In this document: positions 34,449 through 55,973 of the stretch, piece by piece
Layout of the letters: each line of letters begins with the position of its first letter
Position numbering within the stretch: the first letter of the stretch is position 1
Virus record (IMG/VR): IMGVR_UViG_3300021256_000008
Span: 1 to 64,000 of that record
Strand: one strand, 5' to 3'
DNA from: a virus
Lineage: Duplodnaviria > Caudoviricetes
Length of the DNA stretch: 64,000 bases
The notes under the pieces: model-generated
Database searches by the model: none
What the model was told of the DNA's origin: nothing
Seen by the model: the letters and a program-made list of their open reading frames with translations, nothing else
Made by a program: the position numbers and the translations under genes

Positions 34449-36464
34449 TTATGCAACTTCCTCTTCGAGAACGATGAAGGAGTACAGACGAGTGGTCGCA
34501 CCGGAAACGCGGGTCTCGATCAGAGACTTCAGCTGGTTGAAGTCAATGTCAAAGTCGGTGAAATGAGTAATTTCGCCGCCCTTGGTGGAACCGATGTTAT
34601 AATCATTCAGGTTACCGATGATAGCAAGCAGACGATAGGTCTTTGCACTTGCGCCTTCGCCAACGGTACGGGTCAGATTCTCGAATTCGGGAACGTTGTA
34701 AACGCCGTTGACGCCGAGCGTAGAGGTGAGTTCAGCCTTATCCTTGTACAGACGACGACCGTTCAGATCCTTCGCGAGCTGAATCTTATTGAAGAAACGC
34801 TGAGCGCAGAACATATCCATGTTGCCAGAACCACGATAATCGATCATAGCATCAAGGATGGTCTCCTCGACGGCCTGAGCATACACATAGTTCGCACCAA
34901 AGCCCGGATCATTCTCTGCGGCGGTAGCAGAAACAACCTTACGAATGGTGTAAACGCCGTTGTCGGTCCAGATAGGACGAATGCGATCTTCAAAGATCTT
35001 ATCGTCGTCGTTGAGAGCACGACCATCGCCGATCAGGATAGCACGAGCAAGTTCCTTCTCGAGCTGCATACGGTCAATGCCGTACTGATAAGTGACATAA
35101 TCGAAGTCGGTAATATCAACAACGTCATCACGGTTCAGGGCACTCTTGGCATAGATAGTCTGAGGCTCGGTGGTACGCTTCACAACTGCATAGTTCTCAA
35201 GCAGCGTCTTAGCCTTACCCTTCTGATAGCCCTTTGCACGGAGACCGTCGACCTCACGAATATCAACATAAGAAGTGCGAACACGGCTAAACGGGCTACG
35301 ATGGACCTTGTTAAGAACAGTCTTAACCCAAGCCTGATCGTTGGTAACGAGCTCCGGAGCGCCCGGGCGAACATCATGCCACTCGGGGAACAGGGCATCC
35401 ACACCGGCCGGAGTCTGGCCGGAGGGATAAGAGGTGAAGCCACTGACCGGAGCCAGATCGTCATGGCTCAGAGAATTCTGTTCGGCATAGGCATTGAGGG
35501 CCTCTTTGAAGCTGCCATACTTTTTCGCAACGTCAATAATATGCCCCTGATCCTCATGAGAAATATAGTTGGTCGGACGGGCGGCATCAGTGTCTGCAAA
35601 AGCGTTAAAATTCATGTTATCTCCTCCAATATCATCATGTTCGACATTATCGTCGTCACTGTCTTTGCCTTCAGCTGCCTTAGCAACAAGGAACTGAAGG
35701 ACCTTCATCTGCTTAGAATTCATAGTGTTCAGAACATCCTGAACAGTTTCATCTCCATTATCTTCGTCGTCGGCATGCTCGAGAACTTCACCTTCGTCGG
35801 GGTCGTTGAGATCATCGTGCTCAACTTTGTTCTCTGCCGCCGCCTGAGCGACAATAAAAGAGACGACTTTACGCTGCTTATCGGTCAGGGTGTCAAGAAC
35901 ATCCTGAACGGTTTCGTTATCGTCCATGTCTTTTTCTCCTTTTTCATTCTTGTCGTTATCATCATCGTCGTCGTCAGAATCTGCATGAGCAAGTTCCGGC
36001 GGATAATCATCGCCGACATAAATATAAGCTTCATCCATGAGCGTCTCGCAGTCGTCACCGTGAACGACAACGGGGTAGACAATCTGAGCACCCATATTGG
36101 CTCCGGCAAGCACAAGGCTTACTTCCTTAATTGAACCGTGGAGAACATCTCCGCCCTGCTGCTGCAGCTGATTGGCCCAAATAGAAAGTGAAGTAATATC
36201 ACCGTGAGCAATATCGATCTTTGCAGATTTCGCCAGATCGCTGTCATTGAGATACCCATAAAAGAAAACGCCCTCAGGTCTGTTCTCAAGATATCCATGT
36301 CCGAGAACTGCCTCAGGGCTGTCGTGATTGTGTCCCCATACAATTGGGACCCGCTGTCCGTCCTGGTGGGCGAACGCATCGCGTCTGATCGTGCGGCCGT
36401 CAGAACACCGAATATCGTTTCTGGTGGCCCAGCCGCAGAAATCATAGCCTTTGTACTTAGCCAT
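34449..36464 (-). CDS. Prohead protease-scaffold-major capsid fusion (HK97 fold)
   Basis: N-terminal HK97-type protease (VPIVWGHNH...SLSIWAN...EVSLVLAGAN), acidic scaffold with duplicated ETVQDVL.T...KQ helix, capsid domain. Confidence 0.9.
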   Translation of the reverse strand: MAKYKGYDFCGWATRNDIRCSDGRTIRRDAFAHQDGQRVPIVWGHNHDSPEAVLGHGYLENRPEGVFFYGYLNDSDLAKSAKIDIAHGDITSLSIWANQLQQQGGDVLHGSIKEVSLVLAGANMGAQIVYPVVVHGDDCETLMDEAYIYVGDDYPPELAHADSDDDDDDNDKNEKGEKDMDDNETVQDVLDTLTDKQRKVVSFIVAQAAAENKVEHDDLNDPDEGEVLEHADDEDNGDETVQDVLNTMNSKQMKVLQFLVAKAAEGKDSDDDNVEHDDIGGDNMNFNAFADTDAARPTNYISHEDQGHIIDVAKKYGSFKEALNAYAEQNSLSHDDLAPVSGFTSYPSGQTPAGVDALFPEWHDVRPGAPELVTNDQAWVKTVLNKVHRSPFSRVRTSYVDIREVDGLRAKGYQKGKAKTLLENYAVVKRTTEPQTIYAKSALNRDDVVDITDFDYVTYQYGIDRMQLEKELARAILIGDGRALNDDDKIFEDRIRPIWTDNGVYTIRKVVSATAAENDPGFGANYVYAQAVEETILDAMIDYRGSGNMDMFCAQRFFNKIQLAKDLNGRRLYKDKAELTSTLGVNGVYNVPEFENLTRTVGEGASAKTYRLLAIIGNLNDYNIGSTKGGEITHFTDFDIDFNQLKSLIETRVSGATTRLYSFIVLEEEVA

Positions 36465-36573
36465 TCATCATGACCTCCTATAGTATCGATAAACTTCCAT
36501 TTTGATTTTGTTCCGCGTCATCGTTTTCATGTTCCGCATACTAGAAGTCGAAAATTGGAAGCTTCTCTATAAT

Positions 36574-37980
36574 TTAAAATTCTCCCTGACTAAAACGTCT
36601 GAGTCGTGCCAGGGCATCGTCCGGCGGAAGTCCTTCTGTTCCGGCACTGTTACCGCTTTGAATATTCTGAAGCCGGGTTATGGCGTCGCCTTCCGGTATT
36701 TCAGTTTCTTCATCCATCGAATTTTCTACTGTTTCGTCGGCAGGAACGTCTGCGCCTGTCGCGCTCGGATTCACCTGCATGTCAATCGGCATATTCGGGT
36801 TCATCAGCATATCGGCGCCTTCCTGATCGGAGGGTTTAAAGCCGAGGATACCGCGCATCTCATTCGACGCCAGAATCTGATTTCGTATGAGCGTATCTCC
36901 GAGCTTCGCAACTTCGGTCGGAGGAACGACTCGGAACGCATTATAAAACGCCATCATACGGTGCCCTTGAGTATAAGCCCACTGACTCAACCACTTTCGG
37001 TTAATTCCGTCCGTAAGTGTAGTAACCAGAGGCTCAATCATTTTCATGACATAATTGATAAGCATCTGTTCATTTGCTGTATTATTCAGAATTTCTGGAG
37101 CCATACCAAGCTGATCATGAAGTTGTTTAGTCAGCGTATCGATTTGAGACTGAAGATTGTTTTCAAGCGGCCGCCCAAGCTGGATCACCTTTTCAGAAGC
37201 GTCTATATAACCAATCCCATAACGCGAACCGGTTAATTGCTCTTCCAAATCACGCGTTCGTTCTCTGGCGCGTTCTTTCTGTGTATCATGACGGGTAGAA
37301 TATGGAAGCTGAATGATCATGTCCAGCTTTCCGGATGCCGTCTTTTCATCCAACTGGTCAAGAATAGCGAGTTTTCGGCGCAGTCTCTGCATCAAAGAGT
37401 TTGGAGCATTCATAATATCCCAGAAAGGATTTTGAATGATGACACACAACTGCTTTGGAAAACTTATCTGTTCTTTCTGACCGGTCACGTCGTTATATAG
37501 CTCAACATCAATTGCGAATGGATGCCAGCCAATAATTTTTCCGACGCGCGCTGTTTTAACCGTTGTGACACTGAGCGTAGCCCAATTGATGTCTGCAATA
37601 ATTGGACAGATTGCAATATAACCTTCATCAAGAAGCGACGCATAAATATCTTGCTTGAACTCTCGACCAGACTGATCAAGGTTTGCTTCTCGAATAAAAA
37701 GACTATTAAGCTCATCCTTAACGTCGCTTTTATAGCGATCAGATTCATCAAGTTTAACATGACGAATATCAATTGCTGCTGCATCAACGGCCATACGATT
37801 TAAAATAGGCGCAATAATAGACCGTTCGCCACCGGCTCTTGGCCTTCGACGATCCGGCCTATAGGAAGATGCGTAACTGTAATATGTTACTTCGCGCGGA
37901 CCCGTTGTAGTCGGATCCCGATTTCGAAAGGCGTTCCAAGCCTTTTGAATTCGTTCACCCAATGAGGGCAATGGAATCAC
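36574..37980 (-). CDS. Portal protein
   Basis: EANLDQSGREF...LDMIIQLPY...QLGRPLENNL; 468 aa upstream of protease/capsid. Confidence 0.88.
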   Translation of the reverse strand: MIPLPSLGERIQKAWNAFRNRDPTTTGPREVTYYSYASSYRPDRRRPRAGGERSIIAPILNRMAVDAAAIDIRHVKLDESDRYKSDVKDELNSLFIREANLDQSGREFKQDIYASLLDEGYIAICPIIADINWATLSVTTVKTARVGKIIGWHPFAIDVELYNDVTGQKEQISFPKQLCVIIQNPFWDIMNAPNSLMQRLRRKLAILDQLDEKTASGKLDMIIQLPYSTRHDTQKERARERTRDLEEQLTGSRYGIGYIDASEKVIQLGRPLENNLQSQIDTLTKQLHDQLGMAPEILNNTANEQMLINYVMKMIEPLVTTLTDGINRKWLSQWAYTQGHRMMAFYNAFRVVPPTEVAKLGDTLIRNQILASNEMRGILGFKPSDQEGADMLMNPNMPIDMQVNPSATGADVPADETVENSMDEETEIPEGDAITRLQNIQSGNSAGTEGLPPDDALARLRRFSQGEF

Positions 37981-37989
37981 CTCCGAAGT

Positions 37990-39024
37990 TTATGATTTCT
38001 TAGATTTCAGAAGAGGACCAAACAGATTGGAAAGCTCTTCACCGGACATATTCGACAGAAACTCCCATTCTTCCATTTCGTCGTGCATTCCATCGACGAT
38101 GTTCTGTGCTGTCCACATCTGATACTGTGTATATTCCCCGTTTTTGTATCCCTGCTCAATTTCTTTAAGCGCGTCTTCGGCTTCCTTGATCACCTGCTGG
38201 GCCTGCTGTTTTCCGTTATCCGCCCACTCCTTCAGTTTATCCGGGGAAGACGGAATTTCAGTTGCATAGCTTCCGAGCATGGATCTGGTTTCGCTATTGG
38301 AATTAGAAGGAGAGCCGTTATGGTCTTTCAGTTTCTGCTGAATTTCTTCCTTGGCCTTTCTTGCTGTTTCTTTAGCATTGGATGCTACTTCAGATGCTTT
38401 TTCCTTAACATCATCTGCCGCATTTTCAACAGCTTCTCCTGCCTCGGCGACCTTTCGTCTTGCCATCTCGGCTTTCATGCCGGCTGGGTGCTTCTGAAGC
38501 TCGGACCAGGCCTTTTTCATGCGATCTTTAGAAGCCTCGCTGAAGTTTTCATCGGAAGCCTGTTTTCCGGCGTCCTGATACTCCTTATATGCTCTGGCGG
38601 AAGCCTTGGCTTCATTAACCGCACCCGAAGCCTTATTCTTAAACTCGTTCCCGATCTGTTCGGCACGGGTCCTGGCTTTGGAAGCTTTTTCCTGCGCTTC
38701 GCCCATTCCGGCTCTGGCCTTTTCCTTAGCTTTATTCACCGTTTGCTGAGCGGCAGCTTTCTTTTCAGCCAGATACGCCTTAAGCTCTTCCTGCGTATAG
38801 AAATATCTGGTACGCCCATTCTCTTCAATCTTCTGAATGTACTTATGGGTGGTTCTTACGCCCCTGCCGACACCCTGCTTTACAGCGCCAGCTGCTGAAC
38901 CGACTGCAGATCGTGCAGTTCTTAAGGCTCCGCTTGTGCGCTGTCTTATATCGGAAAGCGATGCATGCGCAATGTAAGGACTTCCATTTTGATCGAACAG
39001 TAGAATGTAATCGTCTTCATTCAT
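37990..39024 (-). CDS. Lys/Ala/Glu-rich helical protein with IAH leader; candidate internal virion protein
   Basis: MNEDDYILLFDQNGSPYIAH; HKYIQKIEENGRTRYFY shared with 39098..39910. Confidence 0.75.
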   Translation of the reverse strand: MNEDDYILLFDQNGSPYIAHASLSDIRQRTSGALRTARSAVGSAAGAVKQGVGRGVRTTHKYIQKIEENGRTRYFYTQEELKAYLAEKKAAAQQTVNKAKEKARAGMGEAQEKASKARTRAEQIGNEFKNKASGAVNEAKASARAYKEYQDAGKQASDENFSEASKDRMKKAWSELQKHPAGMKAEMARRKVAEAGEAVENAADDVKEKASEVASNAKETARKAKEEIQQKLKDHNGSPSNSNSETRSMLGSYATEIPSSPDKLKEWADNGKQQAQQVIKEAEDALKEIEQGYKNGEYTQYQMWTAQNIVDGMHDEMEEWEFLSNMSGEELSNLFGPLLKSKKS

Positions 39025-39097
39025 TCCTTACTTTCACTCTCCTTTCTGTTATGTAATGCTAACATCGGAGTCATCCTCCATTTGTTATAAATAGAAA

Positions 39098-39910
39098 CTA
39101 GTTCTTCTTGAAATGCTCATTAAGTTCCGAAATAAGAGCATCCTTATACTTGTTCACAAAGCTAGTGACATGCTCTTTTTTCTCATCGGTAACTTCTTTC
39201 AGTGCAATCTGCGCAAAATCGCCGGTCTCTTTAAAAAACGTCTTTGCGGCTTCTCTTTTCTCACGCTTGGCCTTCTTGACTGCCTCACTAGATGCATTCA
39301 AATCCCGCTTGGCATTAGCCTTTTCGAACTTAATCGGCGGAACCGCTTCAAAAGCACCAACGTGCATCGCCAGAGCCTGTAAGCCAACGTTTTTCATGTA
39401 TTCCTTGAAATTATCTTTTTTGGCTTTCCGAGCACGTTTTGCTTCGGCCTGCTTTTTCTTATAATCTGCAAGTGCCTCAACTGCCTCAGCATACTCCCGT
39501 TCCTTCTGATTCTTTGGAGCAAAGCCAGTTCCGCCGGTCACAGGAGTAGAGCTATTAAGCCCGTCTCCGCGTTTATAGACGCTTCCTTCTTTCGATTTAC
39601 CGGTCACTTTCTTAGAATGTCCGACAGGACGCCTGCCTGGAGTGGTAACGGTGCCTCTTCTGAATTTATCAGATCCTTTACCTTCATAAATGCCGCCGTT
39701 TTCCGAAACTGATCTGGTACCTGCACTTCGATTACGCTGATAGGCATCCCATTCCTGCTTACTGTAGAAATAGCGTGTTTTCAGACCGTTCTTTATTTTC
39801 TCATAGTACTTATGATCTTTCTTACTTTCATTTTGATTCTGTCTACGAAAGAAGGCATGAGAAATGTAAGGATGACCGGATTCATCAAAACTCACAATAT
39901 AGTCTGACAT
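39098..39910 (-). CDS. Basic protein with ISH leader; candidate internal virion protein
   Basis: MSDYIVSFDESGHPYISH; HKYYEKIKNGLKTRYFY. Confidence 0.75.
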   Translation of the reverse strand: MSDYIVSFDESGHPYISHAFFRRQNQNESKKDHKYYEKIKNGLKTRYFYSKQEWDAYQRNRSAGTRSVSENGGIYEGKGSDKFRRGTVTTPGRRPVGHSKKVTGKSKEGSVYKRGDGLNSSTPVTGGTGFAPKNQKEREYAEAVEALADYKKKQAEAKRARKAKKDNFKEYMKNVGLQALAMHVGAFEAVPPIKFEKANAKRDLNASSEAVKKAKREKREAAKTFFKETGDFAQIALKEVTDEKKEHVTSFVNKYKDALISELNEHFKKN

Positions 39911-39926: not shown

Positions 39927-40373
39927 TCAAAGATGTCTTAGATACATCTGATTAGTGGTACGTGAAACGCGATTCATAAATTCCTGACCGGCTGTAATGA
40001 TACTCGGATCCAGAGTTACAACACTCTGTTTGCCGAATTCCTTCTCCATTTGCTGTACCCATCTGGCGCCTTTTTGTGCTGTTTTAACGGCACGTGCTGA
40101 CTGCACTCTAGACTTCGCGTACTGCTTTTGAGCGTAATTCGGAGACCGGAATAAAACTCTGGAATCCGCTGCTGCGCCTTTTGCCATACGCTTACGGGCC
40201 TTCTCGTCGTGCTTTTCGATCTTTCTCTGGAACTTTCCGACTTTCTTGGCGGCTTTCTCATAAGCCCGCTGAGGATTATGCCGAACGCCCCATTTCATAC
40301 CGAGAACACCGTAATGAGCGAGACTTGGAGAGCCGTTTTCATCATAGGATACAATGTAATCGGACATAATCAA
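39927..40373 (-). CDS. LAH-YG.LGMKWGVR family protein; candidate internal virion protein
   Basis: MSDYIVSYDENGSPSLAHYGVLGMKWGVRHNP. Confidence 0.8.
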   Translation of the reverse strand: MIMSDYIVSYDENGSPSLAHYGVLGMKWGVRHNPQRAYEKAAKKVGKFQRKIEKHDEKARKRMAKGAAADSRVLFRSPNYAQKQYAKSRVQSARAVKTAQKGARWVQQMEKEFGKQSVVTLDPSIITAGQEFMNRVSRTTNQMYLRHL

Positions 40374-40921
40374 TGCTCCCTTCGAACTGTATACTTCTTT
40401 CCTGTAACAAATCCGGAAGCATCCGGTTGGTTGTATTTAGTGGCCTGATACGCATTAATGCTGTTATACGCCAGATTACCCGGAATACCCGCAAGGGCAT
40501 GGGCCAATGCCGTTTCACCAGCAGTTACAAAACGGTTGTATTCCTTGCTGTTAATTGTCATCCCTTTATTGCTTGCATCAGAAAGAATCTTACTTACAAG
40601 CTTTTCGCCGGAACGAATAGCGTCGTCATATTCCTTGGCTTTTGCGGTATGCTCTTCATACTTATCGTCTTTACTCTTCTGATAAGCTTTTTCAGCTTTG
40701 ATCTTTTCTTTTGCGCTTTTGTAACGAAGGCGAGCATTTTCGGATTCGATCTTATTCAGGCTTCTCTGTGTACTACTCGCGCTGTCTGAATTATACCGTT
40801 TCTTTCCGGCATCGGTTAACGTACCGTCCTCATTTTGATACCGCCGGACGCCCCATTTCTGTCCTTTGATACCATGGTGAGCGAGGTAATCGTTTTCATA
40901 ATAATCCATAAAGTCGCTCAT
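40370..40921 (-). CDS. LAH-HGIKGQKWGVRRYQN family protein; candidate internal virion protein
   Basis: ENDYLAHHGIKGQKWGVRRYQNEDGTLTDAGKKRY. Confidence 0.8.
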   Translation of the reverse strand: MSDFMDYYENDYLAHHGIKGQKWGVRRYQNEDGTLTDAGKKRYNSDSASSTQRSLNKIESENARLRYKSAKEKIKAEKAYQKSKDDKYEEHTAKAKEYDDAIRSGEKLVSKILSDASNKGMTINSKEYNRFVTAGETALAHALAGIPGNLAYNSINAYQATKYNQPDASGFVTGKKYTVRREH

Positions 40922-40935
40922 GGTTATCACCTCAT

Positions 40936-42681
40936 TTATTCAAACATGTCCCTGTTGATCCTATAGGCAACATAGGCATCGAGCATCGCAGAGACATTAT
41001 CGATCTTCTCTTCGCGATGCTTCTTTCTTAATTTTCTGTTTCCATTAGTATCTTCCTGGGCAACACAATGGCCCATACAGAACTGCATAATATCTTCGTC
41101 AAAAATAAGTTCACGGCGTTCCGCAAGAACCTTCAGTTCACCAAGCGGAACTGACTCGGTCTTTACACCCTGAGGAACTTTTTCAATTCCGTATGGTCCG
41201 TTATCGATCTCCCAACGATTGATAAACACCGGCGCATTATATGGGTCGTATCCAACGCACATGACGTTATAGCGCTTATCGTTAATAAACTGATAGAGAT
41301 CTTCATAAACCATACCGATATCAAGAACGGTGGAGTCCATAATAACAAGACTACCTTCACGAAGGAACTTTTCATATTCCTGTCGAAGTGCTCTCGGAAG
41401 CTTTTGGAACGTATAGGACGTAATATAGCTTCGCGCCTTAACTCCAAAGCCTCTTCCCGGAATCGGGAACAGAAATGTAAAAGCACAAAAGTCGTCACCG
41501 AGCGAAAGGTCAGCACCCATCGAGCAGCTCATACCATCGAAGTACTGGCGGTGATGCGGCTTGGTTTCTTCATAAGTAAAGAAATACGTGTAACCTTCAC
41601 ATGGGATTCCAAAACGTTTGGCCAGAATATCATTACGGTTAGAAGGGCTCTTTTCAGAACGTTCTTTCTCGAGCTTATAAGTCTCGTACGTTACTGTGTG
41701 ACCAAGATTCGGGTTGGCCTTCAGCCACATATTCGGATTCTCGAGTTCCGTAAGATCGTCAAGCTTATACCACCAGATGGACACATGAGGATTGTAGTAA
41801 TCGCCCTTTAAGATGTCCATCAGTTCCATTTTGATTGTATCGCCAGGCCCATTTCGAACGGTTCCTTCCGATGATGTCGCAACAATTAGCCAATCGTCAA
41901 CTTTGGCCGCTCCCTGTTCAAGAGCGCCAACGACATCTTCGTTTACAACTCCGGAAAGCCATTCGTCAACGGTTGAGTATTTGCATCTTGCGCCCTGAAG
42001 CTTATCAATGCGCATAGGACGCGACTCGATAATGGACTGAGTTTCGAAGTTTTCAATACCCTTCTTGGTGGCTGCAATCTTGACACGATCCGCTTTCTTC
42101 CCGGTCGTATTCTGGAGCGATCCTTCTGTCATGAACTGAAGAACCGGGCCTCTTGCTCTGGCTATCGCGATCTTAAGAGGCAACAGCGTTTCTTCGGATT
42201 GGCGTATCGTAGGTGCCGTGATTATTTGGTCAGTAGATTCTTCGTCCATGATCAGACCATACGCTTGAATACATGTGCAGTATAGACTTTTTGCTGCGCC
42301 ACGACCGACAATCAGATACTGCTTATTACGCAACCGCTTCTTAATGTACCGCGTCTCCAGATGAACTCCGGGACCGTAGCTGTTCGGCACCCAGACATCT
42401 CGCCGGATGAAATAGAACCAAGAATAAATATCCTCGGCCCATAATTTAAATGAGTCGAGGAGTCTAAGGTCTCCGCCGTCCGTAAGGGTTAGTTCCGATT
42501 CACAAAAGTTGATCCAACCGTCCATGACCGTATCGTCATAGTAGCAGCGCGGATCGGCGATAAGACCGTCTATAATGTTCATTTGAAGAGCGACTTCCCG
42601 ATTCACCGGAATCTCTCTTCTTAGTACGGCGTCTCGAAAAGCGCCGTAATATTTTGGTACAGCGGTGTTCGATAACGCCAT
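40936..42681 (-). CDS. terL: Terminase large subunit
   Basis: YLIVGRGAAKS Walker A, TVDEW Walker B, GADLS..DDF and KIDNVSAMLDA nuclease motifs. Confidence 0.93.
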   Translation of the reverse strand: MALSNTAVPKYYGAFRDAVLRREIPVNREVALQMNIIDGLIADPRCYYDDTVMDGWINFCESELTLTDGGDLRLLDSFKLWAEDIYSWFYFIRRDVWVPNSYGPGVHLETRYIKKRLRNKQYLIVGRGAAKSLYCTCIQAYGLIMDEESTDQIITAPTIRQSEETLLPLKIAIARARGPVLQFMTEGSLQNTTGKKADRVKIAATKKGIENFETQSIIESRPMRIDKLQGARCKYSTVDEWLSGVVNEDVVGALEQGAAKVDDWLIVATSSEGTVRNGPGDTIKMELMDILKGDYYNPHVSIWWYKLDDLTELENPNMWLKANPNLGHTVTYETYKLEKERSEKSPSNRNDILAKRFGIPCEGYTYFFTYEETKPHHRQYFDGMSCSMGADLSLGDDFCAFTFLFPIPGRGFGVKARSYITSYTFQKLPRALRQEYEKFLREGSLVIMDSTVLDIGMVYEDLYQFINDKRYNVMCVGYDPYNAPVFINRWEIDNGPYGIEKVPQGVKTESVPLGELKVLAERRELIFDEDIMQFCMGHCVAQEDTNGNRKLRKKHREEKIDNVSAMLDAYVAYRINRDMFE

Positions 42682-42700: not shown

Positions 42701-44200
42701 TTAATCAATTTGCCAAACATAACGAATGTTTTTACGATTCTCAGGAGTGTCCTCAAAACCAAGATCTTTAAGAACAACACTATCTAGATTTTCTTCTGCT
42801 TTGTCATAAGCTTCTCTTGCTTTTTTCATTGCAGGATCGTTATTGAGTTGACGAACTCCTTCTAAAAAGTTGTTATCAAGATCGTATTTTTTGTATAGAC
42901 TTTCATTGACGTTTTCTAGTTCGTCCCATTTGTCCTTAAGATCGGCAAGCGCCCTTTCATGATCTTTGGACACCGAACGACTGTCGTACCAATTGCCGCT
43001 TTTTTCATTATAAGCTTTAGAAATCGCAATATACTTTCCGATATCAGCATCAGAAGGGTTTTCGCCAGTTGCCGATTTCAAATAGTCTTCCTGAGCCCTC
43101 GCACGCTCGTCACGGTCTTTAATATTAGACATGCGATCAAGTTCGAGTTCGCCGTCTTTTTCTAATTTATCCCAATATTTTTTATAGATTTCTTTATCCT
43201 GTTTGGAAGCTTTCCACTTTCCGTTGCTTCTTTTTCGGTATACATTTCGAAAGGTTCCGTTACTGGCATACCTGGTTTTTCCTTCTTCGGTCAGTGTCCC
43301 GTCTGCATTCTGGTAGCGTCTTACGCCCCATTTCATACCAAGAATGCCATGATGAGCGAGAAAATCTTCGTCGTCTGAAATATCTTCCACATTAGTTCCG
43401 AGTGCGTCATGTGATACATACCAGTCGGGATCCCGCCCGGTGTACCAGTTTGCGTTTTTCGGAAGATTATCAACAATATCTTGGACAAGGTCTTCGGTTG
43501 ACTTCACTTCCGGAATAGACGAAGCTACTTTCTTATTAAGTACATCAACGGAATTAGACCACTTGACGTATTCGGCGAGTTCATTTGCCGTGAACGCCTT
43601 CTGATTCTTCAGAATATCATCAACTGACATGTTTCGAAGAAGTGCCGCCTTGTCAACTTTCTTCTCTTCCGGTTTTTCACCGATCTTGAGCATTCTCTTA
43701 CCGTTGACTTTTCCGGAGTCAACCAGTACGTTGTTAACTTCGGCCATAAGGTTATACATACCCTTTGCGTTTTCAGCGAGGCCTTTAATCTTGCCGAGAT
43801 TCTGAGAAAACTGCTGCATTTTGTTCCATCCGCGCTGAATTTCAGCATCACGAATATCTTTCAGCGCAGTATCGGTTCTGATCTTATTCGTAAGATCACG
43901 GATCTCATCGTCGGAAAACTCGGTGCGGTACTTATACAGTCTGCTCGGATGTTTACGAACATGCTCTTTCAGAGCTTCATGCTTTTCGGCTTCTGACTCT
44001 TTTGCCTTGGCGGCTTTTTCTTCCTTCAGCTTACTTACTTTATCCTTAATCTTTTCTCGGACTGATTTGTCAGAAATTCCGCGTCTCTGTCGCCCGAGCT
44101 GTGTGAGAGATCCGTCTTCGTTCTGATAACGACGAATTCCCCATTTCTGGCCTTTAATGCCGTGATGGGCCAGATAATCATTGTTGAGTTCAAATTCCAT
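42701..44200 (-). CDS. Protein with two LAH-HGI.G.KWG.RRYQN units; candidate polyprotein
   Basis: Motif at the N-terminus and again after the acidic linker YVSHDALGTNVEDISDDEDFLAH. Confidence 0.8.
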   Translation of the reverse strand: MEFELNNDYLAHHGIKGQKWGIRRYQNEDGSLTQLGRQRRGISDKSVREKIKDKVSKLKEEKAAKAKESEAEKHEALKEHVRKHPSRLYKYRTEFSDDEIRDLTNKIRTDTALKDIRDAEIQRGWNKMQQFSQNLGKIKGLAENAKGMYNLMAEVNNVLVDSGKVNGKRMLKIGEKPEEKKVDKAALLRNMSVDDILKNQKAFTANELAEYVKWSNSVDVLNKKVASSIPEVKSTEDLVQDIVDNLPKNANWYTGRDPDWYVSHDALGTNVEDISDDEDFLAHHGILGMKWGVRRYQNADGTLTEEGKTRYASNGTFRNVYRKRSNGKWKASKQDKEIYKKYWDKLEKDGELELDRMSNIKDRDERARAQEDYLKSATGENPSDADIGKYIAISKAYNEKSGNWYDSRSVSKDHERALADLKDKWDELENVNESLYKKYDLDNNFLEGVRQLNNDPAMKKAREAYDKAEENLDSVVLKDLGFEDTPENRKNIRYVWQID

Positions 44201-44272: not shown

Positions 44273-44872
44273 TTAGTCGTTCATACCGGCGGCACGAATC
44301 ATCGAAATGTACTTCTTGAGTTCCTGCTTCTCGTAATCGGAAGCAGATGTATCAAAGAGCTTTTCGAGACAGGAGACCGCGCGGTCGCTTATGCTGTGAC
44401 GACTGTAGCCGTGACCACGATCGGAGTATTCAGGACCATAGTACGGATCGCCGCAATAGCTGCGGTTCATGAACTCAGAAGGATATCCGGGATAACCTGA
44501 GTAGCCATCGGAATTGCTCTGATACCAGCCATGAACACCATAGTTGGGATTCCCATAGCTTCCGCGATTCATGCTACCATAACTGCGATCCGAGTAGACA
44601 GCCCGCTCAGGCATGCCGTAAGAAGTGATATGATACTGACGGTAAGGTTCGCCGTGCATAGAATATCCACGCTCAGCGTACTCACCTGGTTCTTTCTTCT
44701 CTTCCTCGGCCTTGCACTCCTCTACACGGCAGCAAAGCTCGTCGTACAGATGAAGACCGTCAATGGCGGCTTTGGTTTCGGCAGGAGTGAGGTCATTCTT
44801 CTGCATGAGTTCGTCGAGGCATTTCGCTACGACTTTCTTCATGTTTTCCATGGATTCAGTTTTCAGTTCCAT
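44273..44872 (-). CDS. Tyr/Gly/Ser-rich hypothetical protein (Cys/Gly-rich module)
   Basis: GGAGG RBS; low-complexity YG/YS centre. Confidence 0.75.
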   Translation of the reverse strand: MELKTESMENMKKVVAKCLDELMQKNDLTPAETKAAIDGLHLYDELCCRVEECKAEEEKKEPGEYAERGYSMHGEPYRQYHITSYGMPERAVYSDRSYGSMNRGSYGNPNYGVHGWYQSNSDGYSGYPGYPSEFMNRSYCGDPYYGPEYSDRGHGYSRHSISDRAVSCLEKLFDTSASDYEKQELKKYISMIRAAGMND

Positions 44873-44886
44873 TTTGAATTTCCTCC

Positions 44887-45339
44887 TCACTTCTTCTTGA
44901 ACACAATATTCGCAGCCTGGACCAGAATAGGTGTAGTTCCAGTGTTACGAATACTGAGCGTCTGGCAGCAGCCCTTCCAAATGGACACGTTGGCAGCTCT
45001 GGAGACATTAAAGTACTGTTCAATAGCGGCCGGCGTAACTTCCATTTCGGTTCCTGCCAGAGTATTTCCGTCAAGAGCGAATGCAACCGAAATAGGTCCG
45101 ACTGTCTCTCCTTCAAGAATGGCGATATTAGCGCCGAAATCCACCATATAGTCTACGGTAGCCGGCTTGCAGCAACATCTCCGAACACAGGAACCGGTAT
45201 CGATTCCCTTCATCAGAAAGGCGCCGCTGTCCTCACGGTGCAGAATATAACCCCTCGGGCATGACTGTGCCGTATCGGTGAAGACGATGGCCTCACCGGG
45301 GTTGACCGTCTGAACGGCAACACTAGTCCATTCAGCCAT
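44887..45339 (-). CDS. Beta-rich protein, possible BclA C-terminal/C1q-like jelly roll, with CCC motif
   Basis: QTVNPGEAIVFT...YMVDFGANIA...ISVAFALDG...YFNVS pattern; fold assignment is inference. Confidence 0.5.
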   Translation of the reverse strand: MAEWTSVAVQTVNPGEAIVFTDTAQSCPRGYILHREDSGAFLMKGIDTGSCVRRCCCKPATVDYMVDFGANIAILEGETVGPISVAFALDGNTLAGTEMEVTPAAIEQYFNVSRAANVSIWKGCCQTLSIRNTGTTPILVQAANIVFKKK

Positions 45340-45351
45340 CTCGGCACCTCC

Positions 45352-46194
45352 TTAACCCATGCAGCCGCAGCCTGTATTCTGAGGGCAGCAGTTCTGATTC
45401 TGAGGGCAGCAGTTCGGATTCTGAACGATATACGCAGGACGCGCCGTCGGCAGAACATACTGCTCAATCTCATTAGCCAGAGCACGCTGACCGGCCTGAA
45501 TCGTTGCAGTCTGCTGGGCCTGAGAGGCCAGACGATTCGCTTCGTTCAGCTGAGCCGTAAGAGCAGCAATCTGCTGATCCTTACCGGCAAGCTCGAGCTG
45601 GCAGATCTTATCCATAACGGTCTGAATACCGGCATTCGTAGCATTGACAATCGCCTGGGTATTGGCATTATTTGCCATTAGCATATTGGTCAGACCTTCG
45701 TTCAGGGCAGTGCGATCCGCACAGTTCTCAGTCGCGACCGTATACTTTAAGTCGGCGAGGCCGGCACGGTTCTCACAACAGCAGCTCTGAAGATTCATGG
45801 CCAGGCCATTCATGCCGGAAATCGTCGCTGCCTGATTGGTGTTCAGAGCCTGAAGAATGTTCATGTTGGCATTGCAGCGGGAGATCTCAGCGTTTGCAAA
45901 GCCGTTGTTGATAGCGCCGGTAATGCCGTTCAGAGAACCCATGATGGCAGACTGGTCAAATCCGCGCTGAACATCAGCGTTCTGCTGGTTGCCAATCATA
46001 AACGGCATCATACCGCCCATGCCGCCACCAAAGCCGAAGCCATTGCCCCAACCGTTGTTAGCAAACAGAAGCAGGATAATCAGCCACCAGGCAGCGTCGC
46101 CGCCGAAGAAGCCGTTACCGAAACCACCGTTACCGCCATACATAGGACTTACGGGCATCGTGAAATTGGCATTACCGTTTTCAGAGTAAGACAT
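45352..46194 (-). CDS. Gly-rich protein with TM-like segment, coiled coil and Cys-rich motifs (SCCCEN, NCCPQNQNCCPQNTGCGCMG)
   Basis: Sequence composition; ATG 46194. Confidence 0.8.
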   Translation of the reverse strand: MSYSENGNANFTMPVSPMYGGNGGFGNGFFGGDAAWWLIILLLFANNGWGNGFGFGGGMGGMMPFMIGNQQNADVQRGFDQSAIMGSLNGITGAINNGFANAEISRCNANMNILQALNTNQAATISGMNGLAMNLQSCCCENRAGLADLKYTVATENCADRTALNEGLTNMLMANNANTQAIVNATNAGIQTVMDKICQLELAGKDQQIAALTAQLNEANRLASQAQQTATIQAGQRALANEIEQYVLPTARPAYIVQNPNCCPQNQNCCPQNTGCGCMG

Positions 46195-46559
46195 GATAAT
46201 CTTCTCCTTTGAGAATATGAATTTACGTTCTTTCAATTCGCGCTCTATTTACACAGAAAAATTGCGTCCGGACGAAAGAGGATGAGCACGGATCATTCCG
46301 ACGTATAAGGAATATTTAAACCGACCTCTGGTTAGCTGCTCCTTGGTTGGTCTAAACCAATATAAAAAGAGCCTTACGCAAAATTTGCGCAAAGCTCTGA
46401 TTTGACAAAGTTATTTTGAATTATACTTGATCGTTTTAACCCGCGAAGGGCAACAGTTGTAAAACAAGAAACTGACCTGTTGACAGTTTAAGTTGTTAAG
46501 TTTTTGCTCTTCAAAAGAAAAGTCTACAATACAAATACCACGAAAGTGTAGCTCAAAGA

Positions 46560-50628: not shown

Positions 50629-50982
50629 TTAATAGCCGTAACGCGATACTTCTTTAAGAGTCCACTCTAGCTCAGCAATCTGTTCTTTGAACACGTTTAC
50701 AACTGTCGCTGAGACTGGCGTATCAAAGATCTGACGCGTTTTTAGATAAATATACTGCTTTACTTCTTCTGGTCTGGTATCGGCCGACATAAAATCATCC
50801 CAAGTTTCTGATGAACCTGTGATCTTAAAAGGAAGTGTAGGACCGACACCAAGTTGGCATAGTCGGGAAAATGCAGTATTAATATGGATGATAAGATCTG
50901 TATCGAAGATTTCATATGATGCAGATGGACCTATCATCTTACGAATTGTTTCTAAAATACTATTCGTTTCTTCAGTTGGCAC
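50629..50982 (-). CDS. Head-tail adaptor-like protein
   Basis: SIL.TIRKM.G...FDTDLIIHIN.AFS.L.QLGVGP...ELEW.L. Confidence 0.6.
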   Translation of the reverse strand: MPTEETNSILETIRKMIGPSASYEIFDTDLIIHINTAFSRLCQLGVGPTLPFKITGSSETWDDFMSADTRPEEVKQYIYLKTRQIFDTPVSATVVNVFKEQIAELEWTLKEVSRYGY

Positions 50983-51004: not shown

Positions 51005-51033
51005 TTGAGAAATGTCTTATGTTTTGCTATAAT
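51005..51033 (+). promoter_or_regulatory. Near-consensus sigma-A promoter TTGAGA-N17-TATAAT with extended -10
   Basis: Read directly upstream of the plus-strand moron. Confidence 0.8.
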
Positions 51034-51069
51034 GAAGTCACATAACAAATATAAGAAAGGATTGCGGGC

Positions 51070-51666
51070 ATGAAAAAATTCATTTCAATGATGCTGGTTC
51101 TGACGCTGCTTGGAAGTTTATTCTCTGTAACATCTTTTGCTGATGCCAAATCTGACATTGAAGTAATGTCAAAAATAGCAGACAAACTTTTTGATACTTC
51201 AGATGACATGGATGTCCAGGTATTCTTTTCAGCAGCTACTTATGAACTGTTACGTAGAAAAATTATTTCGGTTGAGCAATGCAATGAAATACTTTCAATC
51301 ATTCAGTCACCGGATAAAAATACTTATACATTCGGTAAGGGAACCTTTATTGTCGGTACAGATCTGAAAGCCGGCACCTATAATATCTTTTGTGAATCTA
51401 CGGACCAGGATAATTACTCGGACAGCATAAGTTCTTTCGGAGATCTCTATACCCAGTATGGGATGCAGGAATATGCAGACGCTTTTAGTTCTCTTGGTGG
51501 TCTTGCTGATTCGATGAAGTCTATTACTGTTACGACTTACTCTTCCAGAGGTCTGATGGATAAGTACTACACACTGAAAAATAATGAATCAGCTCGTATC
51601 ATTCTGACAGATGGAATGCAGCTTGAAATTAGCGGCGGAACTGCAAGACTTGAGTTCGTAAGATAA
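51070..51666 (+). CDS. Secreted or surface moron protein, opposite strand to the morphogenesis operon
   Basis: Signal peptide MKKFISMMLVLTLLGSLFSVTSFA; G.FIVGTDLKAGTY motif; own promoter and AAAGGA RBS. Confidence 0.8.
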   Translation: MKKFISMMLVLTLLGSLFSVTSFADAKSDIEVMSKIADKLFDTSDDMDVQVFFSAATYELLRRKIISVEQCNEILSIIQSPDKNTYTFGKGTFIVGTDLKAGTYNIFCESTDQDNYSDSISSFGDLYTQYGMQEYADAFSSLGGLADSMKSITVTTYSSRGLMDKYYTLKNNESARIILTDGMQLEISGGTARLEFVR

Positions 51667-51667
51667 C

Positions 51668-52099
51668 TTAAATCTTCCAGGGACATGTGTCATTTGGTGT
51701 TCTTACTACGAGCTCATAAGGTGTAATAAGAGACTCGTCACCATAATGAATCGCGTCATGAGTTCGTTTACGACAAGAAATAACATACTCGGGATTCATT
51801 AAGAACTGTGTCTGATCAATGATGTCTTTCGTATCTATTGGATTCATATGGTGAATAAATATCTTTTCATGCTCCCCAAACGGATGATCAAGATCCGCCA
51901 AGTCACAACCGAAGTCTCTTAAAATTATCTCTCTTCTAAACTTTCGCCATTCGTACGATGTGTAGAATTTTTGATTTAAATATCGCTCCCAGCCAAAAGT
52001 TTCTTCACCAACTTTTCCGCCGAGCTTTAGATAGCGAAAACGCTCAAGAAATGTAGGAAGAGCCATAAGCTCAGAATACGTACGGATTTTCTGGTACAT
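51668..52099 (-). CDS. HNH endonuclease, probably packaging-associated
   Basis: WRKFRREIILRD.GCD...IHHMNP...VISC...HDAIH; adjacent to small terminase. Confidence 0.8.
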   Translation of the reverse strand: MYQKIRTYSELMALPTFLERFRYLKLGGKVGEETFGWERYLNQKFYTSYEWRKFRREIILRDFGCDLADLDHPFGEHEKIFIHHMNPIDTKDIIDQTQFLMNPEYVISCRKRTHDAIHYGDESLITPYELVVRTPNDTCPWKI

Positions 52100-52436
52100 C
52101 GGTAGACTCCGTTCTATAATTCTTAAGAGCTGCAACAACTTCTTTGTAAAATATAGCACGATCTTTCTCGGACTCGATAGCCGATGTCTTAGCTCTGAGT
52201 AACGCGTTCTCCTCTTGCAGTTTCGCCATCTCTTCTCTATACTTTGCAGAACCGGCCTTTAGAAAAGGAACTATCTCGGCAGCCGTTGCAGTGCCATTAT
52301 CAATTCGCTCTTCAACAAGGCGATAGCTTTTCATGATCAATCGGTTCTCATACTCTTCTGGAGTGGTCGGAATTGGCTCAGGAAAAACTTCACTACTAGT
52401 TTGTTTGGGTTTTCGTGCAGCCAAGGTATAGTTCAT
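52071..52436 (-). CDS. Putative terminase small subunit
   Basis: Helical 121 aa, first gene of the morphogenesis operon, next to HNH and candidate packaging site. Confidence 0.5.
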   Translation of the reverse strand: MNYTLAARKPKQTSSEVFPEPIPTTPEEYENRLIMKSYRLVEERIDNGTATAAEIVPFLKAGSAKYREEMAKLQEENALLRAKTSAIESEKDRAIFYKEVVAALKNYRTESTDVPENPYVF

Positions 52437-52460
52437 CTCCTTTCTTGCCTAGTTTTACCA

Positions 52461-52864
52461 TAGTCTCGATACTTTTTAGGTGAGTATGATGCTAGTTTTC
52501 ACTAGAGTATGGACGGAGCAAATGACACGAAAGGAGAACCCTTGGAAGAAGAGGAATACGGCAATGAGCAAAACCGTTAACGAATACATCATACTCACTT
52601 AAAAAGCATCGGACTAAAATATAAACTATCCCCCCGGAGGAAAATTTAGGACCCGCGCGATTATGGGCCCCCTATATTATATTTTGACCCTCCCCCGGGT
52701 GTTTATATCCGATTTATATTTAGTTTATGTTCATAAAAGACGAATGAACAAGCGCAAAGCGCATAGAAGTTGTAAGAAATGCAACTAGATAGCGATTCGT
52801 TATGAGATAGTTGACATCTATACCTATAATCAATCTATAATCATACAAAAAGCTATCTAGTTGC
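52461..52864. repeat. Non-coding region with a 24-bp inverted repeat (52468-52491/52587-52610), a GC-rich block (52629-52700) and a perfect 13-bp inverted repeat (52781-52793/52852-52864); candidate cos/packaging region
   Basis: Repeats read directly; cos role inferred from position. Confidence 0.5.
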
Positions 52865-52912
52865 GGTCTAGTTTCAGTTTATTTCGTTTCTATTATTACA
52901 ATTTTATTCTTT

Positions 52913-53179
52913 CTAACTCTCTACGACTTTTACATAACATACTTCTTTTCCAGTAACAGGACTAATCATTCGAAGATCCATCGCTACAATCTCATCACAA
53001 GCATCTTCGATAGCCTGATCCATTTCTTTTTCCGTAAGATCGGGAGAAATAGCAGCAATGCGCGCGAGGTAGGACATGGAATAATAGCCACATTCTTTTT
53101 CGTCATACGCTGCCCAACGATCATATTGTTTGAATGGATCAAACTTATTGTCACTTGTTGTTATTAGTGTTCGCGCCAT
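52913..53179 (-). CDS. Small acidic protein overlapping the end of the RNAP gene
   Basis: GGGAGG RBS; TT.DN.FDPF.QYD.W...GY.S.SYLARIA. Confidence 0.75.
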   Translation of the reverse strand: MARTLITTSDNKFDPFKQYDRWAAYDEKECGYYSMSYLARIAAISPDLTEKEMDQAIEDACDEIVAMDLRMISPVTGKEVCYVKVVES

Positions 53180-55973
53180 TGTTCAAATCGCCTCCCATTC
53201 CATTAAAGTTCTTGAATTCTTTTGCTAAAGCATCTACTGAAACTCCTAATTCTTTTGCTACAGTTGAAGGTGCATAGCCAGAATTCAATAATACTCTTGC
53301 ACGACTTTTTGTCGTTGCTTTCATTCCGGTAGAGGCTCTTGGTAAAGCTCTTTCTTTTATTTTAGTTTTATCTGAGTATCTTAAAACTTTTTGGAACTGA
53401 GTATCTGAAATAGCTCCAGCCTGAATTGCTTCCCATTCACGATCAGTAAGATCTATTCTGTAACGTTTTTCATGTCTTCCGCCATTTACAGCGTCTCTTG
53501 CATTATCTAAAGCTTTAGCGGCAAGTTTTCTTCTCTTATCAGCATGATCTTTATCTCTAAGAGAAGGATCAGCCGCTTCTTTTGCTCTCATAACATTTGA
53601 GGCAATGATCTGAGCTTGACGCTCTTTCGGAGCCTCGAGTTCTGCTCGAGCAATCTTCTTTGCAAGAGTTCCGTCTTTTCCTACAACATCGTCGTAGACT
53701 TCACGTGCGGTCTTGTTCTGTTCAAGCCGACCAGTAGAACGAGCTTCTTTACGAGCTTCATTTGCCAGCGCTTTCATTCTATTAGAATGCTCAGCATACA
53801 CTTCTTCAATGTAATAACCGGCGGACAGTTCATGAGCATCGTCTACAACCGATAATTTTTCAACTTTGTCAATATTGTCTACCCATTTACCATTCTTATC
53901 TTTATGCTTATGACCCGTAGGACGATAGATCTTTTCACCTCTATCATAACGTTCCTTCTCTTCCGGTGTCATGGTAGAGTAGGCATAGATTTCCTTTCTC
54001 TCAGGAATTCTGGTCTCACCCTTAGCTCTCGAAATCAGTGTGGAAGCGCCGCCACCATCCTGATAAAGTTCTTTAAGTTGAGCGATGCCATTATCTTCGT
54101 AAGACTTTTTCCAGTCAAGGTTGTGTTTTTCGGCATCTATTACGCACATTGAATGCCTAACGGCTCGTTCGATTTCGCTTGGATCAGCGCCCTTGATCGT
54201 CATGTCCGTAATCAAGTTGGATGCCATACCCATCTGAACGCCTTTATTAAAGCCGTCGCCCTTCTTTCCATCCTTGCTTTTACCGGTTCGAATCGGATCG
54301 TTCGGATCTCTCGTGTAGTAATCGGACGGATTGTAATCGATGAGACCTTCCATAGGAGGAGCTGTCTTTAGCTTTTGGCCTTTTGTCGGAATAACAAGAA
54401 CTGTATCGCCGTCATAATCTGCGCCAGATAGCTGGTTTGCAGAACGTGAATTAATCCCAATTGCGTGCGCTGCAGATGTACCAAGAAGCGCTTTTCCTTC
54501 AGGATTGTTATTATTTACAATCAGCCTTGGAATCTGGAAAACGCCTTCATGCGGATGACGAACAAGAATGACTTCTTCTCCCTGTTCATACATAGGAGCA
54601 TAAACTTCGTTATCTTTAAGACTCGTAACAGGTAAAATTGCAAAAGCACCTTGGCGCGGCAATGCAGCGGCTTTCAAATGCACGGCGGCAGAATCACATG
54701 TATCTGCAAACTCTTCGCAAAGTTGCCTCTTAAGAGTCGGATTTGTGATAGATTTAAGTTCCTCAAATTCATCGCTCATTTCGCCATAGCGGAGATCGAG
54801 TTGCTTTTTTGCAAGCTGTGGCCACTGCTTCGAAAGAAATTGGGATGACAGGTTTTTCTTCCACGTATCCCAGTCTTCATCATCGTTTACGATGTTAATC
54901 GGCGACGTATGTTTTTCACCATTAGGGCCATCGTATTCCCACTGCCTAAAAGATGCTCCAAACGGATTTTCGGCATCGATTTTTCCTTTATCGTCCGTTT
55001 TCATTTCTTTAAGAACGGTGTTATCACCTTTCCCAATCATCGGAACATCTGAATGCTTATTTGTATTAAACACAATATCGACGCCGGGAGGCATCTTTGA
55101 AGGATCACCATAAACGGCCATTCCCTTCAGATAATGTGTCCCATCAACACCAATTCGAACCTGGGCATAGTTTCTGCCGCCCAAATATAAATCATCGGTT
55201 CCTGGACGAATCTCGATAACTCCGTCTTTCTCCTGTCCGCCGCCAGGTTCACCAGTATTGTAGTTCACCATGACGCGGCTTGAATCGATACTCGGGATCG
55301 GCTTTCTGTGAACTGCAGTTTCGCCGTAGTCCTCAAAATATAAACCTTCAGGCGATGTTACTTTCCCAAGATTCTCTTTAAGCTCTGCTTTGGTTACTTC
55401 GCCATCACAAAGAATTTTTAGATTCGTAAACTGCTTCGGATTACTGACCTGAGGAAGGCGATAATCATAGACGTTGTATCCTTCGTCTTCAAGAAGCAGT
55501 CTTGCAGCATGAAGCTGCTCTTCACTGATATTCAGCTGACGGTTAACACCTTCACCGATGTCCAGATACGGTTTGTCTTTCAGATACTCTTTCAGCTCGT
55601 TAGCGATATTCTGTACAGTATCTTCGCGACGTTTCTTTGATGGATCCAAAAGATTACGAACAGTACCTTCTGAAACTCCAAGCTTTTCAGCAATTGCCGT
55701 GTTACTCCAGCCTTTATCTTTCAGCTTCAGGGCTGTCATCTGATTTTCGGCACCGATTTGATTCTTATAGATCTTTCGCATGGCGACATAATCGCCGGTA
55801 CTCAAACCCATAGCTTCAGCAATTTGCTTCTTTGATAGTCCTTGTGCGGCAAGGTCGTCAGCGCGCTGAAGAAAGTTTTTATTACGCTGAGGATTCTTTC
55901 CGGATCCCCAAGGGTAACGTCCAGAATGTCTAGGTGTTCCGTAATGTTTTAAAATATTCATATCAGCCTTCAA
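53151..55973 (-). CDS. Single-chain two-barrel (YonO/QDE-1-like) RNA polymerase with two N-terminal and one C-terminal HTH; start probably ATG 55961
   Basis: QLSGADYDGD (DYDGD at 54405-54419), VILVRHP, YAQVRIG...LKGMAV, HSMCVIDAEKH match conserved DPBB motifs. Confidence 0.8.
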   Translation of the reverse strand: MKADMNILKHYGTPRHSGRYPWGSGKNPQRNKNFLQRADDLAAQGLSKKQIAEAMGLSTGDYVAMRKIYKNQIGAENQMTALKLKDKGWSNTAIAEKLGVSEGTVRNLLDPSKKRREDTVQNIANELKEYLKDKPYLDIGEGVNRQLNISEEQLHAARLLLEDEGYNVYDYRLPQVSNPKQFTNLKILCDGEVTKAELKENLGKVTSPEGLYFEDYGETAVHRKPIPSIDSSRVMVNYNTGEPGGGQEKDGVIEIRPGTDDLYLGGRNYAQVRIGVDGTHYLKGMAVYGDPSKMPPGVDIVFNTNKHSDVPMIGKGDNTVLKEMKTDDKGKIDAENPFGASFRQWEYDGPNGEKHTSPINIVNDDEDWDTWKKNLSSQFLSKQWPQLAKKQLDLRYGEMSDEFEELKSITNPTLKRQLCEEFADTCDSAAVHLKAAALPRQGAFAILPVTSLKDNEVYAPMYEQGEEVILVRHPHEGVFQIPRLIVNNNNPEGKALLGTSAAHAIGINSRSANQLSGADYDGDTVLVIPTKGQKLKTAPPMEGLIDYNPSDYYTRDPNDPIRTGKSKDGKKGDGFNKGVQMGMASNLITDMTIKGADPSEIERAVRHSMCVIDAEKHNLDWKKSYEDNGIAQLKELYQDGGGASTLISRAKGETRIPERKEIYAYSTMTPEEKERYDRGEKIYRPTGHKHKDKNGKWVDNIDKVEKLSVVDDAHELSAGYYIEEVYAEHSNRMKALANEARKEARSTGRLEQNKTAREVYDDVVGKDGTLAKKIARAELEAPKERQAQIIASNVMRAKEAADPSLRDKDHADKRRKLAAKALDNARDAVNGGRHEKRYRIDLTDREWEAIQAGAISDTQFQKVLRYSDKTKIKERALPRASTGMKATTKSRARVLLNSGYAPSTVAKELGVSVDALAKEFKNFNGMGGDLNNGANTNNNK

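Follow-up and report, generated by a model that had tools for sequence, protein, structure and literature searches.

The stretch of DNA analyzed here, which we call the window, comprises 64,000 nucleotides and corresponds to positions 1 to 64,000 of an 85-kb IMG/VR phage record (IMGVR_UViG_3300021256_000008) with direct terminal repeats. The head genes discussed below, as well as the gene of an RNA polymerase (RNAP), are all located on its minus strand (Table 1). Among them, the gene at 34449-36464 encodes, as a single protein of 671 residues, a protease, an acidic scaffold and a capsid domain. We analyzed this capsid fusion together with five cargo-like proteins and the RNAP, whose N-terminal regions display the same short motif as the scaffold, that is a hydrophobic residue, any residue and a histidine (L-x-H). 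The tripeptides concerned had been quoted in an earlier note made from the DNA letters, and all of them were found in the corresponding genes, including ILKH-YG in the RNAP.

Table 1. Features of the head module and of the RNAP gene in the window. In the text, the genes of cargo-like proteins are named by their first coordinate; a hyphen after His marks the presumed cut.
Feature	Position	Strand	Basis
HK97-type major capsid domain; predicted mature start D335, 337 residues	34449..35462	-	Homology to a relative with PF05065
Acidic scaffold linker, residues 136-334, isoelectric point (pI) 4.05	35463..36059	-	Sequence; family motif statistics
Protease domain, residues 1-135, ends VVH135-GD	36060..36464	-	AlphaFold2 and Foldseek; phrog_3270 'head maturation protease' E 5.6e-191
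Portal protein	36574..37980	-	PF04860 E 3.1e-12; phrog_12
Cargo-like charged helical protein; 20-residue acidic leader ending YIAH-AS, remainder pI 9.0	37990..39024	-	Leader conservation
Cargo-like basic protein, pI 9.9; 18-residue leader ending YISH-AF	39098..39910	-	Leader conservation
Cargo-like basic protein, pI 10.8; long leader, then DUF7211 tag SLAH-YGVLGMKWG	39927..40367	-	PF23847 E 7e-10
Cargo-like basic protein; N-terminal DUF7211 tag YLAH-HGIKGQKWG	40370..40921	-	PF23847 E 8.3e-9
Terminase large subunit (TerL)	40936..42681	-	PF20441 E 8.7e-25; phrog_9 E 1.5e-95
Two-module tagged protein	42701..44200	-	PF23847 E 7.5e-20, 2 stretches
Single-chain RNAP similar to YonO and RNA-dependent RNA polymerases (RdRP), 940 residues, GADYDGD, helix-turn-helix units	53151..55973	-	phrog_4291 E 2.5e-303 over residues 3-921
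RNAP N-terminal tag variant ILKH-YGTPRHSGRYPWGSG	55899-55961	-	N-terminal conservation

The N-terminal part of the fusion was modeled with AlphaFold2 (AF2) over residues 1-175. The model is confident for residues 1-125, with block-mean predicted local distance difference test (pLDDT) scores of about 78-91 over residues 1-120. When compared to known structures with Foldseek, it matched the proteases of pseudorabies virus, Kaposi's sarcoma-associated herpesvirus, Epstein-Barr virus and human cytomegalovirus (probability 1.0, E-values from 6.5e-4 to 1e-3, template modeling score of about 0.5). The predicted fold of this domain is that of the herpesvirus assemblins. A Pfam scan of the whole fusion returned no family at E <= 0.01, Peptidase_S78 included, and a sequence search among solved structures gave no match for either the fusion or the RNAP. 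In our alignment of homologues (A2), S116, which belongs to the stretch E-V-S-L-V, is invariant, as are H45, H47, H56 and H109. H45/H47/H56 together with S116 are candidate catalytic residues.

The scaffold contains an internally duplicated helical segment and six sites, LAH160-AD, VEH216-DD, LEH230-AD, VEH276-DD, ISH303-ED and LSH334-DD, which all read [LIV]-x-H-[ADE]-[DE]. An additional seventh site, VVH135-GD, which the earlier note had missed, forms the end of the protease domain. Seven of the eight His between residues 128 and 345 fit [LIV]-x-H-[ADEG]-[DE], H308 being the sole exception, and seven occurrences of [LIV]-x-H were reached in only 2 of 100,000 shuffles of this segment (p ~2e-5). 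We then extended the comparison to the homologues, taking the His as P1 and the residue following it as P1'. Among 862 linker His from 124 homologues, which are related sequences and not independent events, P3 is L, V, I or F in 92% of cases, P1' is S, D, G or A in 86% and P2' is D or E in 82%. A set of 18 representatives, with less than 80% mutual identity and 36-76% identity to the window protein, includes phages 1706, FP_oengus and ReqiPepy6 (36-41%); in this set P3 is L, I, V, M or F at 101 of the 109 linker His, for a linker background of 5% L, 4% I and 6% V, so that the motif noticed in one sequence is indeed conserved in its homologues. Each linker harbors 5-8 sites, whose P2, P4 and spacing vary while P3 and P1 are kept. 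H135 and H160 are invariant columns amid variable sequence in A2, and one site always stands a few residues upstream of the start of the capsid fold, I-D-x-L-F-P, across the relatives. This pattern supports the idea that the linker motif behaves family-wide as a protease-site motif under selection, and we consider it quite probable that these motifs are cleavage sites. Assemblin cuts between Ala and Ser in (V/L)-x-A-S and gp21 of phage T4 cuts after (L/I)-x-E, both enzymes reading P3 and P1; a hydrophobic P3 combined with a fixed P1 thus fits what this fold is known to read. As to the exact bond, we lean towards the one directly following the His.

Cleavage at these sites would release the protease domain (135 residues), cut the scaffold into pieces of 14-56 residues and leave a capsid protein of 337 residues; such predicted sizes make sense for a head that has to get rid of its scaffold. 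Concerning the capsid domain, Pfam gave no direct match to PF05065 (Phage_capsid) in the window fusion, and the HK97-type assignment was made through a relative, L149:6412-8202, to which the full-length fusion is 35% identical (E 4e-112) and which itself has a recorded match to this family. The annotation given to relatives reads 'major capsid and protease fusion protein'. The gene of this relative was found in two samples of one phage: it is whole (596 residues) in L149:6412-8202, and split in L150:6412-8123 into a protein of 222 residues, containing the protease and part of the scaffold, and another of 348 residues, containing the remaining scaffold and the capsid domain.

The second set of L-x-H motifs is found in the cargo-like proteins. 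Three of them match the Pfam family DUF7211 (PF23847), to which Pfam assigns no function and whose consensus reads L-x-H-[HYFW]-G-x-x-G-x-K-W-G. Their scores in the Pfam scan are all above the gathering cut-off of 27 bits (70.4 for the two copies of 42701, 38.6 for 39927 and 35.1 for 40370), and a genome search gave 48 and 30.9 bits for the two copies of 42701, 40.7 for 39927 and 37.9 for 40370. The copies of 42701 occupy residues ~9-30 (YLAH-HG) and 277-297 (FLAH283-HG); a scaffold-type site, VSH264-DA, is present in its acidic spacer, and its first module is a stand-alone gene in relatives. The proteins 37990 and 39098, like the RNAP, are below the DUF7211 cut-off and share only the first part of the tag, namely the leader and L-x-H. 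Another leader, D-Y-I-V-x-x-D-E-N-G-x-P-Y-I-x-H, is common to 37990, 39098 and 39927. We rejected the bare N-terminal [LIVMF]-x-H as evidence, as 11 of the 75 minus-strand open reading frames (ORFs) carry one within their first 30 residues; the significance of the leaders rests on their extended homology. In the tail block, an ORF of 610 residues (17970-19802) also shows E-I-L-H-A-V from residue 14, which may be due to chance.

A profile of the DUF7211 region retrieved 51,535 representative proteins at E <= 0.001, the best matches being polyproteins of up to 1569 residues with 2-5 copies. Each module begins with the tag, whether it is a gene of its own or fused to others in a polyprotein, and two of these polyproteins that could be traced to contigs lie between TerL and portal genes, beside a fusion capsid. 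Two DUF7211 polyproteins, P0124 and P0127, end in a Gln_amidase domain (papain-fold toxin 1, a glutamine deamidase), and the set of tagged cargo therefore includes toxin-like enzymes. We located 350 copies by a pattern covering only G-x-x-G-x-K-W-G and not L-x-H. P1 is His in all of them and P3 is Leu (97%) or Ile (3%); Y or E stands at P4, preceded by acidic or polar residues at P5-P6. From P6 to P1, this profile is like that of the linker sites, which also have acidic or polar residues at P6-P5, then Y or E, with Leu as P3 and His as P1. As for charge, the scaffold is acidic as described above, the leaders have a net charge of -3 to -4 and the cargo bodies a pI of 9-10.8. When modeled alone with AF2, the tag is mostly coil with pLDDT of 60-70; we dropped the possibility of a small autonomous, perhaps self-cleaving, domain, and this predicted lack of fold fits a linear docking or cleavage motif.

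The earlier note had also proposed that the leaders are capsid-targeting propeptides. This does not hold well. Leaders of 5-7 residues are possible for the RNAP and the tags, and these leaders vary, and the strongest conservation of DUF7211 is found after the His, in H-[HY]-G-x-x-G-x-K-W-G-V-R-R-Y-Q-N-x-D-G. The homologues of 37990 and 39098 display the opposite, with a leader conserved up to the His and divergence beyond, and the only element common to all classes of tags is an acidic stretch followed by L-x-H. Given such short leaders and a conservation that spans both sides of the His, it is unlikely that the leader alone is the address, and our confidence in that idea is low. Whether the tags themselves are cut at L-x-H is a tentative proposal, which we are slightly more inclined to doubt than to accept. 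We did not find any paper on DUF7211, the tag core or a His-specific prohead protease in our literature searches.

A further observation was made in actinophages, in which the gene following the portal (L007:8184-8834, L094:12374-12988 and L095:7441-8052) encodes a charged helical protein starting with a hydrophobic residue, x and His, then E-Y-D-P (ReqiPepy6 gp23, Avazak gp18) or Y-S-S-Q-Y-Y-D-P (Circum gp11). In composition and in location this protein is similar to 37990, and it may represent one more scaffold or internal protein.

The RNAP was identified by its phrog_4291 match; the Pfam RdRP family gave only an E-value of 0.0084, below the cut-off, and HHpred support for the family has been reported (10.1101/842583). 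Its N-terminus, L-x-H-Y-G-[TI]-x-R-x-S-G-R-Y-P-W-G-S-G, is kept in 1706, FP_oengus, ReqiPepy6, the Streptomyces phage Bilo and ~40 IMG/VR loci, behind variable leaders of 5 to ~45 residues, and that of ReqiPepy6 gives a weak DUF7211 match (E 0.004). We also noticed a promoter-like motif, TTCGYA-N13-CTATAA followed by tg, on the minus strand of the window between 2778 and 14862 and at 56881. It stands before small-gene cassettes at 2778, 3734, 4036, 4279, 7750, 8109, 8477, 8724, 9107, 9411, 9725, 14738 and 14862, and before the RNAP operon at 56881, and is absent from the head-tail block; its 13-nt spacing does not fit sigma-70. It is from this motif only that we infer a link between a delivered RNAP and early transcription.

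In the order of transcription, an exonuclease gene (55963-56715) precedes the RNAP gene, small genes, an HNH gene, a connector-like gene (50629-50982) and the lysis genes; then come 42701, TerL, 40370, 39927, 39098, 37990, the portal and the capsid fusion. TerL is flanked by tagged genes on both sides, as in all the relatives examined. Between the lysis genes and 42701, three small Gly/Cys/Tyr-rich ORFs (44273-46236) contain C-C-C-K-P, repeated C-C-P-Q-N and runs of G-N-G-F-G, one of them with a hydrophobic segment. A megablast search of the window against phage genomes gave no match. An identical gene set and order, i.e. connector, tagged gene, TerL, tagged genes, portal and fusion capsid, plus an RNAP with DxDGD, is found in Lactococcus phage 1706, Faecalibacterium phage FP_oengus, Rhodococcus ReqiPepy6, Gordonia Avazak and Arthrobacter Circum. 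The window contains the head module of a siphophage that belongs to the same lineage as phage 1706, FP_oengus and a large actinophage supercluster. This lineage has been described by Koert et al. (bioRxiv 10.1101/842583), where the polymerase is proposed as a lineage signature and no link is drawn between it and the virion, the tag or the protease motif.

We then analyzed how the three elements are distributed. Searches of 50,697 phage genomes gave 244 records with the fusion capsid, 250 with the RNAP and 194 with the tag, and no match to any of them outside the lineage. The three counts coincide in Gordonia (55/55/55), Streptomyces (54/54/54), Rhodococcus (4/4/4) and Microbacterium (4/4/4). 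Moreover, in the record of phage 1706 (EU081845.1), orf75, which is the RNAP homologue, orf7, which carries two tags, and orf6 are annotated 'structural protein', labels that correspond to virion mass spectrometry as deposited in the record. These labels are the only experimental hint at hand, weakened by the fact that orf62 and orf71, two small proteins of the replication module, bear the same one, so carry-over is possible. The packaging of the RNAP in the virion, as proposed in the earlier note, hence receives indirect support from orf75, to be tempered by this shared label. The papers on the Arthrobacter phages and on Scarif contain no virion proteomics for the lineage. On the whole, we regard it as reasonably likely that the tagged proteins and the RNAP are head cargo.

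How could a fused protease and a set of tagged proteins work together? We propose that each capsid subunit would be made as one protein, in which an acidic scaffold links a serine protease of the assemblin/HK97 type to an HK97-type capsid domain. In the procapsid, this protease would cut after His in [acidic or Y]-[L/I/V/M]-x-H. The cut at H135 would free the protease domain, the scaffold would be chopped into its 14-56-residue pieces, able to leave the shell, and the mature capsid protein would be left, starting at D335. The L-x-H tag, be it DUF7211, the long leader or the RNAP variant, would mark the five basic proteins and the RNAP as head cargo. Most likely, the protease domains, held at the inner wall of the shell, would bind it as a substrate and then cut it, and such a docking on tethered protease domains would explain the strict link between tag and fusion. 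The basic cargo, polymerase included, would be retained in the head together with the DNA, to be ejected into the cell. Taken as a whole, the explanation by a His-cutting fused protease and L-x-H-tagged head cargo including the RNAP seems to us evenly poised between right and wrong. One could go further and assume that the capsid-fused protease domains are a loading dock, at which any L-x-H-tagged protein would be bound in the growing shell and set free by the cut, and which would serve freely exchangeable effectors, some of them toxin-like, as well as the RNAP; once ejected, the latter would fire the TTCGYA-N13-CTATAA promoters without the host enzyme; at present we find this extension unlikely.

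Several points weigh against the proposed mechanism. The homologue counts carry the dependence mentioned above, and the 1706 labels a possible carry-over. A hydrophobic residue followed by x-H-G also occurs within the folded protease (VLGH56-G, DIAH87-GD and DVLH109-GS), where it is invariant or nearly so in relatives; the motif by itself does therefore not define a cut. H56, H87 and H109 may be catalytic or structural His, or else self-digestion sites as in HK97 gp4. AF2 failed to place linker sites in the protease cleft, a result that we consider uninformative, residues 131-175 having mostly pLDDT below 50. Three RNAP homologues lack either a hydrophobic P3 or the His. Finally, the residues after the His differ, the tags displaying [HYFW]-G and a long conserved basic stretch and the scaffold sites [SAGD]-[DE], so that a single enzyme may be unable to cleave the two, or the tag may serve for docking only. 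The protease that cuts after His, as put forward in the earlier note, finds good support as regards the scaffold, in the conservation of the linker and the assemblin fold, and stands on weaker ground for the tags, whose P1' is H, Y, F or W against a small or acidic residue.

This difference leads to an alternative in which only the scaffold motif is cut, and the N-terminus of the DUF7211 proteins and of the RNAP is an uncut address peptide that binds the portal, the capsid inner face, the scaffold helices or DNA, the shared L-x-H being convergent or marginal. A conservation lying mainly after the His, a bulky aromatic P1' in the tags unlike the scaffold sites, and leaders of 5-7 residues, from which a cut would remove almost nothing, would all be well accounted for. 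However, P3 is Leu in 97% of the tags and the His is constant, the residues at P4-P6 are like those of the scaffold sites, 37990 and 39098 keep the leader and the hydrophobic-x-H yet have no G-x-K-W-G, and tags begin every polyprotein module, as cleavable junctions would. We place this alternative on the unlikely side. It is more improbable still that the tag is unrelated to the head and directs the proteins and the RNAP to a shared cell site or partner, for instance at the membrane or the cell wall or in a replication-transcription complex, with an RNAP made after entry like those of T7 and YonO. Many tagged proteins of actinophages do have a hydrophobic membrane-like segment past the tag, the RNAP is encoded within the replication module, next to the exonuclease and a helicase, with its own phage-type promoter-like motif at 56881, and YonO of SPbeta has not been reported as a virion protein. 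But tagged genes are always wedged among connector, terminase, portal and capsid genes, orf7 and orf75 of 1706 are annotated as structural, and the motif is also present in the scaffold of the head protein itself.

One would also wonder whether the linker His, with an Asp or Glu within two residues after nearly every one of them, could serve during assembly as metal- or pH-sensing contacts by which the scaffold is held or released, rather than as cleavage sites. This appears highly improbable, as a hydrophobic P3, found in 92-93% of cases, is what one expects of a protease subsite rather than of a metal-binding site, as sites lie exactly at the protease-scaffold and scaffold-capsid borders, and as a protease fused to its substrate needs sites while no other recurrent motif is present.

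Coming back to a His-cutting protease with tagged cargo, parallels can be drawn with several known systems. In T4, the internal proteins IPI-III and Alt have short N-terminal leaders that end in the motif of the protease gp21; the same motif serves to chop the scaffold core, and the basic cargo is injected with the DNA. The window phage is similar in having leaders that end in a scaffold-type motif and a basic cargo. It differs from T4 by P1 His instead of Glu, by a protease fused to every capsid subunit and by a tag conserved well past the presumed cut, with leaders that can be shorter than the 10-residue T4 sequence, and it is known here from sequence alone. In phiKZ and 201phi2-1, gp175 removes N-terminal propeptides of virion RNAP subunits at a three-residue motif. 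phiKZ, however, belongs to the jumbo myoviruses, its RNAP has several subunits and its motif is [SAG]-x-E, against a siphophage, a single-chain two-barrel RNAP and L-x-H in the present case. With the herpesvirus assemblins and HK97 gp4 (clan SH), the window protease shares the predicted fold, and assemblin sites, which have Y or V as P4, are likewise read through P3 and P1; unlike these enzymes, it would have His at P1 and is fused to both scaffold and capsid. In Gifsy-2, a single frame reportedly encodes a protease, a scaffold and a capsid, with a ClpP-like protease; the tripartite fusion would thus be the same, and neither a His motif nor a set of tagged cargo is said to be described there. 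As for the polymerase, RdRP-like two-barrel enzymes made of a single chain include YonO and gp66 of the crAss-like phage phi14:2, and both gp66 and the virion RNAP of N4 are delivered together with the DNA. The N4 and crAss enzymes are much larger than the window RNAP, which would be delivered likewise.

As a sequence feature, the system is real and lineage-wide, and it would represent a new variant of the protease-coupled head loading of T4 and phiKZ. If the proposed mechanism is true, it would give a function to DUF7211, which is present in more than 50,000 protein clusters, and define a prohead protease with His at P1. It would also predict the mature capsid ends in hundreds of isolated actinophages and thousands of gut phages, and make the unexplained 'structural' orf75 of phage 1706 testable. 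A modular loading of toxin-like domains and of an RNAP into siphophage heads would moreover be useful to understand early infection and for the engineering of cargo delivery. Should the docking and the delivery of the RNAP both prove true, a very large group of siphophages from gut and soil would harbor a hidden strategy like that of N4.

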